A stretch of DNA of 40,581 nucleotides from a virus. Lineage: Duplodnaviria; Heunggongvirae; Uroviricota; Caudoviricetes. A program made the position numbers. Position 1 is the stretch's first letter, and each line of letters begins with the position of its first letter. This document shows, piece by piece, positions 15,001-18,000 of the stretch. The stretch lies in IMG/VR virus record IMGVR_UViG_2534682325_000021; one strand, 5' to 3'.

Positions 15001-18000
15001 TATGAACAACTACGGTGACTTCTGCGCTAAACGGGGACGTTTATGCGCACATACAATCCAAACTCTCTTCTCCCTCCACAGATGCAGAAATACACCTGCG
15101 ATTTTTTGCATTCGGTGTTTTTGGCAGCCAAGAACAGGGAGTCTCTGTTTGTCTGGCGGCTAAAGGTGATATGGAAATCGTGATGTCTTAGCCTAAAGTA
15201 GTTGCAACAGTTGGAGCGATTATGGTGGTAGTAGTGATCATCGCGCCCCCCATATGCAAGGGTTGACGACATTATTTATCCGGCGCTATATTCTGTGCGT
15301 TGCCGCAAAATCGGCACACGGGATTGGCGTCCCGGACATCAAAACGACGCATAACCGCGTTCGCGGTTTTTTTATGCGCAGTGCACGTCTACACAAAAAT
15401 TATGGTGGGCTGTGTGAGGGCTTCTTCGGAAGCGCCGGATTTCGTTTTGACCGGTTACGCCAACCTTGCACAGTCCACCACCAGTCGATTGGCGTCGTCG
15501 GTGGTGATAGCTCAAATTCAAAACGAGATTATCGCTATGGTCACTCAGCTCGCATTCCGCGATGTAAAATTCACTCCTATAAATCACAACAACCAGATCT
15601 GGTTTACCAGCAAAGAATTGGCGGCAGCATTAAAATATGCCAGCACCAAAGCAGTAACCGACATCTACAACAAAAATATTGATGAGTTTACTGACGGAAT
15701 GTCTCAGGTCGTCGAATCAACGACCTCAGGAAATTATCGTAAGAAGACTCGCATTTTCTCCCTCCGTGGCGCCCATCTGATCGCCATGTTCGCCCGCACT
15801 CCTGTGGCCAAAGAATTCCGCCGCTGGGTGCTGGATATTCTTGATCGAGAAATTCAACAATCCCCAATCACAAAACAATTCACTGATAACGAACTTTGCA
15901 CACTTGCTTGGTTATGGCGGGCAAGTGACACAATGTTAACCGCTTGCCAAAACGTCACTCCGCTTCTTCAGGTAGCAGAACACCGCGAAGCCGGTCGCTT
16001 CACTTCAATCGAACAAGAATATCCCCGGATACTCAATAAGGCACAGGCAATCCTTGCCAGAGAAACGGCACATGTAAAATTCCGGCCGTGGCAGGATGAT
16101 AAGTGGAGTCGAGTATTGACGCATTTACGTTCTGAACGGCTGTAATAAAGTTGCGGGAGAGAAATGCCGCTAGTATTTTGTAATTAATTGAATGCTGACG
16201 GTTTAATGAGAAGTCAAGAACACTACTTGTACTATAATCGTTCGATGTTAGTGAGGGTTTGATGCAAAAAATGAAGTGATTGACCCTAAATTTGCGCGAT
16301 CAGCGACAGATTGTACACCGAGATCCTGTGGGCTGGAATTTGCAGAGAAATACCGAAAATGATATCCAATATTGTTTTCAGTTCCTACATCATACCTGAT
16401 AAGGGTATAATCATAAAAATTAGGATAATTCAAGTTATAATTGTATGAATAAAAACGACCTTGAAGCATTATCTGACACTAGGCTTAATGAGGCCAAATG
16501 CTTGCTTGATCATGGCTTTTTTCATGGTGCATATTATCTTTGTGGGTATGCAGTTGAATGTGCATTGAAGGCCTGTATTGCCAAGTCATTTTTACAACAT
16601 GAGTTTCCAAACAAAAAAGTCGTAAATGATTCATATACTCATGATTTGTCGCAACTTCTCAAAATTGCCAACTTACATCAAATTTTGATTGCTGACGCAA
16701 AAAATGATGTTTCGTTGGAGATTAACTGGTCGGTCGTTAAAGACTGGAGCGAGCAATTTAGATACGACAATAACATAAGTAAAGCTATGGCCGAACAATT
16801 GTTTGATGCTGTAGGTGACCAAAATTCTGGAGTTTTGAAATGGGTAAAAGCACACTGGTAATCGGCAGAGAGTTGACAAAAGATATGGAATTCTCAGGTC
16901 AATTTTTGTTAAAAAAACTCAAGTTACAGAATTTAACTATTGATGCTGCAATGTGGTTTTATTACCCAGATCTATCTTGGAGATATATTTTAGTTATCAG
17001 TGACTTCTCAGAACGTGGGCCGGCAGAAATATATAGAAAAATCAGTGAGATAAATAGAAATAGCATATCAAAAAAGTATAAGCCGATACCATTAGAAGCA
17101 ATTGAGGCTAAGGGGGATTCAGCTTTTGTTTATAAAATGTTAAAAGGATTTGCTAGAGTCAACGATGGTAAAGTTCGCGTTTCTAATTCTATGGTAAATG
17201 GTTTAGAAATCGTTGACTGTCTGATCTATGAGTTAAAATAAGAAATCTCTTACTGGGTATCATTATTGTTTAAATGACTTTTGATTTTCAATAATCAACT
17301 TGTCATAATTAAGTCACCGGAGTTTGAACTCCTCCGGTGACTTCTGCGCTAAACGGGGACGTTTATGCGCACATACAATCTAAACTATCTTCTCCCGTCA
17401 CAGATGCAGAAATGCACCTGCGATTTTCTTTATCCAGCGTTTGACCTCTGCGGAGGTGAAGCGTGAACCTCCCACAAGACGGCATCAAACTGCATCGCGG
17501 TAACTTCACCGCTATCGGTCAGCAGCTCCAGCCTTATTTGGAAGACGGCAAGTGCTTTCGCATGGTGCTTAAACCGTGGCGCGAGAGACGCAGTCTTTCC
17601 CAGAATGCACTTAGCCACATGTGGTACAGCGAAATCAGTGAATACCTTATCCGCAGGGGGAAATCGTTCGCTACCGCAGCATGGGTAAAAGATGCTCTCA
17701 AACACACATACCTCGGTTATGAAACCAAGGACCTGGTTGATGTCGTAACCGGCGAAATCACTACTATCCAGTCGTTACGCCATACCTCCGATCTTGATAC
17801 CGGAGAGATGTATGTCTTCCTGTGTAAGGTTGAAGCCTGGGCGATGAATATTGGCTGCCACCTGACTATTCCGCAGAGCTGCGAGTTCCAGCTGCTGCGC
17901 GACAAGCAGGAGGCGTAATGGCTACACCGCTTATTCGTGTCATGAACGGACACATCTACAGAGTACCAAATCGTCGTAAGCGTAAGCCTGAGCTAAAACC

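Follow-up and report, generated by a model that had tools for sequence, protein, structure and literature searches.

A duplicated promoter-leader unit flanks an antirepressor cassette and may serve as homology for gene exchange in lambdoid prophages

How does an accessory cassette come to lie between the replication genes and the nin region of a lambdoid prophage, and what is the short sequence that stands on both sides of it? The locus that raises these questions is part of IMG/VR virus record IMGVR_UViG_2534682325_000021 (Caudoviricetes), whose full length of 40,581 nucleotides (nt) we refer to as the window. A pair of direct repeats brackets a 2.3-kb cassette between gene P and ybcN, a gene of the ninB family. 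In this study, we found that the repeated element is a promoter-plus-leader sequence, which we call the ybcN-leader unit, and that it is present as a complete copy directly ahead of ybcN (copy B, 17281 to 17466) and as a truncated copy at the left end of the cassette (copy A, 14959 to 15120). The parts of the repeat and of the cassette described below lie on the plus strand unless the minus strand is named. The history that we consider quite probable is that an old non-homologous join put copy A before the antirepressor module of the cassette and that the two copies then served as homology through which cassettes were swapped, gained, and lost. The interpretation offered in a preliminary description of the locus is therefore supported, with the refinements that the repeat is a duplicated leader unit, that copy A is truncated and decaying, and that exchange appears to be driven by homology.

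Two copies of a ybcN-leader unit

The direct repeats had been described as ~93 bp long with about 5 mismatches, and the computed comparison agrees: positions 15013 to 15105 and 17335 to 17427 match without gaps at 88 of 93 positions (5 mismatches), a pairing expected by chance at ~1e-37 over all position pairs in the window. A repeat search widens the pair to 14959 to 15120 and 17281 to 17442 (162 nt, 81% identity). Measured over 20 nt at a time, identity is 60 to 65% from 14960 to 15010, rises to 90 to 100% from 15010 to 15090, and falls to background beyond 15120 and ~17442. Exactly two copies are found in the window, both by BLAST with each copy and by a covariance model of the unit (R1), which recovers both at full length and scores copy B at 168 bits (17305 to 17448) and copy A at 144 bits (14983 to 15126). 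The inverted repeat reported at the left edge of copy B, given as a perfect 10-bp repeat at 17313 to 17341, does exist and is longer than described, with perfect 12-bp arms (17311 to 17322 and 17332 to 17343) around a 9-nt loop; copy A retains the right arm alone. The segment from 14200 to 17950 is 100% identical to Escherichia coli (E. coli) strain 155, and 176 of 5,426 complete E. coli genomes contain at least 80% of its length.

The anatomy of the unit is best read from copy B, whose extent is supported by folding, by the annotation of phage 82, by the Prokaryotic Genome Annotation Pipeline (PGAP), and by the covariance model. It opens with a promoter-like sequence, TTGATT-17-CATAAT (17281 to 17309), that matches the consensus at 9 of 12 positions. 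This is followed in the predicted fold by hairpin 1 (17311 to 17343); by hairpin 2 (17346 to 17370), which has a GGGA loop and holds the ATG of ylcH (17365) in its 3' arm; by a conserved block with hairpin 3 (17397 to 17434); and by hairpin 4 (17437 to 17464), in which an upstream CCUC pairs off the Shine-Dalgarno sequence of ybcN (GGAGG, 17452 to 17456). Similar pairs between a Shine-Dalgarno sequence and its complement are visible by eye in other downstream contexts. The minimum free energy of the copy B leader is -61.3 kcal/mol (z = -5.2). The ylcH open reading frame (ORF; 17365 to 17466) encodes 33 amino acids (PGAP WP_072097617.1, a hypothetical protein in strain 155), and its TGA stop overlaps the GTG start of ybcN in the sequence GTGA. 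The unit ends at this GTG (17463), in keeping with the earlier placement of copy B directly upstream of ybcN/ninB. PGAP places ybcN at 17463 to 17918; this NinB/Orf-family gene opens the nin-region operon and is followed by ninE, a DUF1364 gene, rusA, ylcG, and Q. The ybcN product matches Pfam NinB with an E value of 1.9e-4, which is under the gathering score, and YbcN has been described as a diverged member of the Orf family (PMC4118853).

We gathered further units from phage records, E. coli genomes, 120 IMG/VR contigs (by an exact-pattern scan), and 20 GTDB species representatives. Single units stand directly before ybcN/ninB in phage 82, DLP12, phi80, HK225, HK639, and phages of Enterobacter and Klebsiella, which settles the question, raised in the preliminary description, of whether lone copies precede ninB in other lambdoid prophages. 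Their shared parts are a sigma-70-like promoter, three hairpins, and an ORF of 31 to 33 codons (ylcH/orf33) with a stop that overlaps the ybcN start. Judged from these sequences, the unit is a promoter-plus-leader of ~150 bp, with a promoter predicted from its sigma-70-like match, that stands at the front of the nin-region operon in lambdoid prophages of the phage-82/DLP12 type. The suggestion that the repeated element is regulatory thus fits its place as a putative ybcN/ninB promoter and leader, and it also fits the phage 82 record (X92588), which annotates putative -35 and -10 elements, a "possible regulator-binding site," a ribosome-binding site, and orf33 directly before orf151, the equivalent of ybcN. 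In the DLP12 prophage of K-12, the unit is represented by a 33-codon gene that precedes ybcN, and in phi80 (JX871397) the annotated inverted repeat IR4 is hairpin 2 of the unit. The unit annotations in X92588 and JX871397 were made from sequence alone. In phi80, the divergent IMG/VR loci L025 and L086, and all 12 of the GTDB loci processed, the ORF is uninterrupted and its stop overlaps the following start as ATGA or GTGA. A ybcN-like gene follows in 123 of 142 right flanks, and in most of the others the next gene resembles another NinB/Orf-type protein, as judged by the start of its sequence. Copy B has this layout, with its ORF stop overlapping the start of a NinB/Orf-family gene, whereas the ORF of copy A runs into unrelated sequence.

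Copy A is truncated after hairpin 3. It retains hairpin 2 (15024 to 15048), hairpin 3 (15081 to 15112), and a 46-codon ORF, ylcH' (15043 to 15183, ATG at 15043), whose unit-derived part (15043 to 15120) is called by PGAP as an incomplete pseudogene with its C-terminus missing. Its promoter, TTAATT-17-AATTAT, matches 7 of 12 hexamer positions and is not called in a promoter scan; hairpin 1 has lost its left arm and folds with -5.2 kcal/mol, compared with -20 kcal/mol for copy B; and hairpin 3 carries a G-to-A change. By these changes, copy A in this window is to be read as a decaying relic.

The right end of copy A is the same wherever the copy occurs. In each case, hairpin 3 with its 3' arm (...TTTTTTGCAT) is the last part homologous to the ybcN-type unit, and one right flank is common to 15 of 15 copy-A units, which comprise 7 distinct sequences (from the window, PhiR26_1, IdasGreatGrand, strain 118UI, and several IMG/VR contigs). 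Beyond the junction, every copy-A unit continues with the same spacer of ~150 bp and then the isrK promoter. The length of the repeat differs by lineage, from 93 to 162 nt here and 167 nt in locus L031 to at least 629 nt at 98.6% identity in locus L075, while the right end stays constant. Because the right junction is fixed and the left extents vary, we favor one old non-homologous join followed by later homologous exchanges.

The spacer (15121 to 15262 in the window) is specific to copy-A-type cassette heads. Among phage records, it occurs only in IdasGreatGrand and PhiR26_1; other isrK/C4 loci, which are those of Shiga toxin (Stx) phages, begin at ~15254 with the isrK promoter. The spacer holds a small hydrophobic ORF (ATG at 15171, TGA at 15264 to 15266) that is interrupted in the window, and not in its relatives, by a TAG at 15189 to 15191. 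In the relatives it is intact, encodes 29 to 31 amino acids (for example, MEIVMSWPKVVATVGAIMVVVVIIAPPICKG), and matches phrog_4612, a family with no assigned function (E value of 1.7e-16). Its stop overlaps the -35 element of isrK, and its start is overlapped for 13 nt by the ylcH' ORF.

This arrangement raises the possibility that copy A was selected as a working second promoter-leader, serving the small hydrophobic ORF and the isrK-antirepressor module, in which case the repeat would reflect re-use of a module and not a by-product of recombination. Because the join coincides with the 3' end of hairpin 3, the structured element was kept whole, and the overlap of ylcH' with the start of the phrog_4612 ORF mimics the overlap of ylcH with ybcN. 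Moreover, the promoter and hairpin 1, which in the window are reduced to an uncalled 7-of-12 match and a -5.2-kcal/mol stem, are intact in loci L031, L035, L073, and L075. A run of five to six T residues follows hairpin 3 in 7 of 7 distinct copy-A sequences, yet 6 of these 7 are altered in the near-invariant hairpin-3 block itself. With the nonsense codon in the small ORF and the pseudogene call added to these losses, we regard a working copy A as unlikely.

Exchange of flanks and cassettes at the unit

The two sides of the unit differ sharply in their variety. Across 137 units with flanks read, the left-hand 250 nt sort into 35 unrelated families and the right-hand 250 nt into 5. The nearest upstream genes belong to 31 protein families; this cargo includes PD-Lambda-1, an AbiLii/RloB-like protein, a HEC-07-like protein, a NADAR gene with a phosphoribosyltransferase-like partner, an alpha/beta hydrolase, BstA, the HEPN pair, ybcM (in K-12), and many uncharacterized genes. 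At least 7 different cargos are seen behind the antirepressor gene, and 3 of the 7 left-flank families that occur with copy A are also found directly on cassette-less units. The idea of a modular exchange site is well matched by this pattern of flanks and cargo, from which we conclude that the unit marks such a site and that relatives have swapped or lost the cassette.

Some individual loci show other arrangements. In the DLP12-type loci L007, L015, and L016, the serine-recombinase gene ybcK lies right against an antirepressor gene cut down to its P22AR C-terminal part, and copy A, isrK, and C4 are missing; in the DLP12 prophage of K-12 (L006), the antirepressor remnant is also absent. Strain UTME-9 has an insertion sequence of the IS3 family in place of the left part of the cassette, similar to one found elsewhere in the window, and keeps the HEPN pair. 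In L130 (331 to 474), the -35 region of the unit is replaced by the unrelated sequence GGGGCCAGTCTAGAAATCAAC..., which indicates that the left junction can fall inside the promoter.

Exchange within the unit can be followed in relatives that lack the cassette. A 46-bp stretch is identical in both copies (15013 to 15058 and 17335 to 17380), and it is the crossover interval in these relatives. The predicted product of a crossover between copy A and copy B, which we built by joining 14700 to 15058 to 17381 to 17700, is found as one contiguous match in two E. coli genomes, NJS001 and STEC799. NJS001 is collinear with the window over 12200 to 15105 and 17313 to 20199; its P, its Vch_cass14 protein, and its 33-amino-acid YlcH are the same as those of the window, the genes from ybcN to Q and the tRNA genes come next, and the cassette is absent. 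At 191 of 194 informative sites, NJS001 fits a single switch inside the 46-bp core. In a three-way alignment, it follows copy A to the left of the core, including the decayed promoter and hairpin 1, and copy B to the right of it, including the rare variants CTAAACTATC, CCCGTC, and TTCTTTATCC. The copies of the PhiR26_1-type pair have recombined in the same way: six cassette-less IMG/VR loci switch from A-like to B-like sequence inside the invariant core. Left of hairpin 2, all of their informative sites agree with copy A, and right of it nearly all agree with copy B.

The direction of the change in NJS001 has to be weighed, since the junction data, being symmetric, accommodate a gain as well as a loss. 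A single unit of the NJS001 type could be the ancestral empty site, into which the cassette was brought by two homologous crossovers inside the core; a single within-unit crossover between co-infecting phages would also put the cassette on a new left arm. However, the sole unit of NJS001 has the decayed promoter and the broken hairpin 1, a left part that occurs in no other ybcN-adjacent unit among the 137 compared, and it has the copy-B-specific variants as well, so that both halves look inherited from a two-copy ancestor. An ancestral empty site is therefore quite unlikely, and because of the unique decayed left part we read NJS001, with good confidence, as a deletion product of a two-copy ancestor.

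The history that we propose for the two copies has three steps. A non-homologous join between two lambdoid genomes would have put one unit copy upstream of the antirepressor module, with the direct repeat as a by-product. The copies would then have served as portable homology, and crossovers within the unit would have swapped left-hand sequence, moved the cassette to new backbones, or deleted it, the likely agents being phage Rad52-type enzymes or host RecA. Finally, copy A would have decayed in the lineage of this window, where its promoter was weakened, its hairpin 1 was broken, and the small ORF acquired a nonsense codon. We infer this order of events, as we do the enzymes, promoter activity, and translational coupling; the anatomy of the unit, its conservation and covariation, the common right junction, the varied flanks, and the exact recombinants are seen directly in the sequences. 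Rad52-like phage recombinases, and RecA to a lesser extent, produce mosaics of lambdoid phages and defective prophages, DLP12 included, over short and diverged homology in experiments (De Paepe et al. 2014, PMC3945230). Two points speak against too literal a version of this history: the single founding join is deduced from the shared junction, and the flanks of NJS001 are only 97.5 to 98.3% identical to the window, so that NJS001 is a cousin of the window and not its direct derivative. The view that the repeats are the footprint of recombination stands, since recombination at the repeat is seen in NJS001, STEC799, and the six IMG/VR loci, with the refinement that the repeats are not the footprint of a target-site duplication.

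The repeats might instead be att- or attC-like sites at which a site-specific recombinase inserts and excises the cassette. The left junctions of the 35 flank families do lie within ~2 nt of a TTGATT...AATCAA dyad, the neighboring gene belongs to an integron-cassette protein family, and the DLP12-type loci have ybcK upstream. Inspection of the P-to-Q interval of the window turned up no recombinase gene, however, and the repeat homology ranges from 93 to at least 629 nt by lineage. The crossovers fall in the longest identical stretch, away from the dyad at the left edge, and the loci with ybcK show loss of copy A and of the antirepressor 5' region and no clean cassettes. We therefore consider this mechanism very improbable. 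A chance match, or a multicopy host element of the repetitive extragenic palindromic (REP) or bacterial interspersed mosaic element (BIME) kind unrelated to the cassette, has in its favor the intergenic location and nothing else and can be dismissed, given the chance expectation and copy number reported above, the match of the sequence at 15013 to 15262 in 2,756 of the 5,426 complete E. coli genomes at a median of 1 and a maximum of 3 places per genome, and the lambdoid-prophage context, with a ninB-family gene or an antirepressor head adjoining, of all 137 units.

Conservation and possible function of the leader

The boundaries of conservation in the ybcN-adjacent units coincide with those of the predicted element. 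Mean column identity is 0.43 ahead of the -35 hexamer TTGATT, steps up to 0.83 precisely at this hexamer, and then ranges from 0.92 to 1.0 as far as the ybcN start. Hairpin 1 has a stem that varies by lineage around a constant YUGAAC loop. Hairpin 2, which is joined to hairpin 3 by a C-rich linker, occurs in five stem versions, each with its complement (GCGCUAAACG, GCGCAUUUAAG, GCAUUUGAUG, GCGCAUAUGAUU, and GCAUCUGAUU), and all five have the same GGGA loop and the AUG at the same place in the 3' arm. The hairpin-3 block is identical over 29 to 33 nt among lineages that are otherwise widely diverged, and a 29-nt block is identical in at least 7 enterobacterial genera. Of the 11 codons that this block spans, none shows a synonymous change among four diverged lineages, although the remainder of the ORF varies freely; the constraint therefore acts on nucleotides, and protein-coding constraint was ruled out as its cause.

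Within this pattern, both copies of the window depart from the consensus in hairpin 3, copy B in the lower stem (CTTTATCC versus TTGCATCC; 17403 to 17434) and copy A in the inner stem (AAATACACC versus AAATGCACC; 15081 to 15112). Types of hairpin 1 and hairpin 2 are mixed among loci L139 to L143 and L144 to L163, and HK639 combines a phage-82-type hairpin 1 with a phi80-type hairpin 2, which suggests that recombination may also occur between hairpins within the unit. The exact 29-nt block is present as well on a 1,115-bp contig (L147) of an assembly of the actinobacterium Kocuria sabuli, most likely as contamination.

Covariation was computed on 58 units in an alignment fitted to the covariance model (A6). 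Predicted pairs are formed in 95.3% of cells, compared with 34 to 48% when the partners are slid against each other, and both partners have changed in 21 of 36 pairs, compared with 3 to 8 in the slid controls. None of 500 shuffles matches the observed covariation values. No Rfam family matches the unit at gathering level, and a permissive scan of 17230 to 17500 returned noise only.

Several known kinds of element were considered for parts of the unit, and none is favored. An intrinsic terminator like that of tR2 seems doubtful, as the terminator scan of the unit returns one weak site, a 5-pair stem with 3 GC pairs and an 8-nt loop; the T run is variable in copy-B-type units and pairs with GAAA inside hairpin 3 in most folds. 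Hairpin 1 resembles boxB/nut in its loop (CCUGAACAA, versus CCUGAAGAA in lambda boxB); the adjoining pairs do not fit, and boxA is absent. The search for a kissing partner of the hairpin-1 loop gave no signal (TGTTCAGG occurs 3 times in the window, with 1.4 expected), and a strand test on the folding energies of hairpin 1 was uninformative (17 versus 19). An operator for the prophage repressor is likewise not indicated, the dyad TTGAT-N8-ATCAA having one other exact match and the unit being common to phages of different immunity. That other match, TTGATAATGACAAATCAA at 11720 to 11737, shares the dyad of the -35 region (17281 to 17298) and extends over the start codon of a ydaS-like immunity-region gene, probably by chance.

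What might such a leader do? The reading that fits best is a promoter-leader that limits translation of ylcH and, through it, of the ninB-family gene. With its AUG buried in the AU-rich stem of hairpin 2 and the Shine-Dalgarno-like GGGA exposed in the loop, ylcH would be poorly translated, and hairpin 2 could act as a translational switch; the stop-start overlap and hairpin 4 would then extend this limit to translation of the ninB-family gene. Downstream in DLP12, rusA is poorly expressed without an inserted promoter (PMC4118853), which agrees with a leader that limits translation.

More generally, we tentatively suggest, at somewhat less than an even chance, that a "ninB leader" is an undescribed, widely conserved cis-regulatory RNA of three hairpins that couples a leader peptide to the NinB/Orf gene and gates the nin-region recombination genes across the Enterobacteriaceae, and that it is a portable module that was copied to the antirepressor cassette and anchors two slots on their right. 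No paper that names ylcH together with ybcN, or that contains the core sequences, was found in the literature searched; a paper on HusR was set aside because the site it treats lies in ybcO-rusA and not in the leader unit.

A number of points count against these proposals on function. The promoter is predicted from a consensus match only, and its activity, like the coupling, is putative. The poor expression of rusA could mean that the unit promoter is weak as well as that the leader is repressive. The outer pairs of hairpin 1 covary even though the predicted transcription start lies among them, so the leader may be carried chiefly by RNAs initiated farther upstream. Finally, alignment A6 is biased toward the model, and a plain MAFFT alignment of closer relatives (A3) gives a weaker signal in the same direction, with 5 double-change pairs and a covariation score of 0.107.

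The cassette, its neighborhood, and known systems

The contents assigned to the region between the repeats in the preliminary description, namely, a promoter-leader-terminator, a Bro-N antirepressor, and a HEPN-like pair, were all recovered with Rfam, Pfam, and the promoter and terminator scans. The head of the antirepressor module (15263 to 15485) begins with a promoter-like sequence, TTGACG-18-TATATT (15263 to 15292), followed by isrK (RF01394; 15301 to 15373; 64.1 bits against a gathering score of 50) with a terminator-like hairpin at 15353 to 15368 and by a C4-type antisense RNA (RF01695; 15398 to 15485; 82.5 bits against a gathering score of 45). The antirepressor gene (15402 to 16145) matches Pfam Bro-N (2e-13), P22_AR_C (1.5e-16), and the PHROG anti-repressor families. 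PGAP starts it at 15537; an orf45-like ORF that begins with the ATG at 15402, over the region of the C4-type RNA, is fused to it in frame. Behind it, in what we call slot 2, lie a HEPN-domain gene (16445 to 16861; Pfam HEPN 3e-6, PADLOC PDC-M28A 1.8e-7) and an overlapping gene for a 133-amino-acid protein (16840 to 17241) that matches phrog_5760 alone, a family with no assigned function. The latter protein has no Pfam, NCBIfam, or PADLOC match, and a HEPN-MNT toxin-antitoxin pair was therefore rejected as an identity for the two genes despite the HEPN domain. The cassette, at most a candidate moron (an autonomous transcription unit inserted between phage genes), has a promoter-like site at 15263 to 15292 and the isrK terminator and is absent from NJS001; no terminator-like site was called in the scan after the HEPN pair. 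Slot 1, to the left of copy A, holds a Vch_cass14-family gene with no assigned function on the minus strand (14437 to 14784; 115 amino acids; Pfam PF18315, E value of 5.7e-20; phrog_5959), in place of which PhiR26_1 and strain 118UI have PD-Lambda-1.

Farther away, three tRNA genes lie downstream of Q (19829 to 20077; Ile, Arg, and Arg by PGAP in the identical strain 155), followed by STnc100 (20190 to 20382; Rfam, 160.7 bits) and, on the minus strand, the anti-small RNA AgvB (20383 to 20444; Rfam, 96.5 bits). This layout of tRNA genes, STnc100, and AgvB is that of lambdoid prophages of the enterohemorrhagic E. coli (EHEC) type. An IS3-family element occupies 2014 to 3227 on the minus strand and contains an ALIL frameshift pseudoknot (2830 to 2946; 121.5 bits).

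Taken as a whole, the locus cleanly exemplifies a known process, in which a short conserved regulatory unit provides homology for the gain, loss, and swapping of accessory genes; it is unusual in that the two-copy state and the exact deletion product are both visible in sequenced genomes. It also locates two variable slots between the replication genes and ninB that carry known defense genes (PD-Lambda-1, an AbiL-like gene, and BstA) in addition to many uncharacterized genes and that should be useful for mining prophage cargo in E. coli, EHEC included. The unit itself is found in about half of complete E. coli genomes, ahead of the recombination genes ybcN and rusA, which have long been known to be poorly expressed in K-12.

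Copy B is the same element as phage 82 orf33 (X92588) and DLP12 ylcH: it is ~89% identical to the phage 82 sequence and has the same -35, -10, inverted repeat, ribosome-binding site, and 33-codon ORF overlapping orf151/ybcN. The records of phage 82, DLP12, and phi80 contain a single copy and do not describe a function, an RNA structure, or a duplication. The antirepressor cassette resembles the isrK-orf45-anrP module of Gifsy-1 (Hershko-Shalev et al. 2016, PMC4825925) and c4-icd-ant of P1 immI; its head passes the Rfam gathering thresholds for isrK and C4 and precedes an antirepressor of the Bro-N/P22AR type. In Gifsy-1, the module works by read-through of the IsrK terminator and coupling via orf45, and in Shigella dysenteriae orf45 is fused to the antirepressor gene (PMC4825925). 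The fusion seen here is of the latter kind and is unlike Gifsy-1, as is the presence of a ylcH' copy and a small hydrophobic ORF ahead of the module. The isrK/C4 versions of Stx phages are only ~73% identical to this one at the nucleotide level, beginning at the isrK promoter.

In its map position, from the replication genes (with ren) to ninB, the unit corresponds to tR2 and the start of the nin region of lambda. Lambda tR2 is a classical GC-rich hairpin with a U run in a 73-bp gap, whereas the unit here is without a strong intrinsic terminator and adds a predicted promoter and a leader ORF. The slots are reminiscent of the P2 and P4 hotspots, where variable cargo that includes some known defense genes lies beside a conserved anchor (Rousset et al. 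2022; Vassallo et al. 2022), and the parts of these two papers available to us do not mention the lambdoid position between P/ren and ninB. Unlike those hotspots, the present slots belong to a lambdoid prophage, occupy the P/ren-to-ninB position, and are nested, each being closed on the right by a copy of the unit. A further parallel is with the mosaic junctions of lambdoid phages (the modular theory; PMC3945230), at which a short conserved patch at a gene boundary lies between non-homologous modules and recombinants, some of them involving DLP12, cross over in the patch. The phenomenon itself is thus of a known kind, lambdoid mosaicism at a conserved boundary sequence, and the undescribed part appears to be the unit, which behaves as a conserved structured RNA leader. 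What sets this locus apart from the known junctions is that the patch is a complete promoter-leader unit that occurs twice, in direct orientation, in one genome; deletion of the cassette within a single molecule is therefore possible, and its product is seen in relatives.

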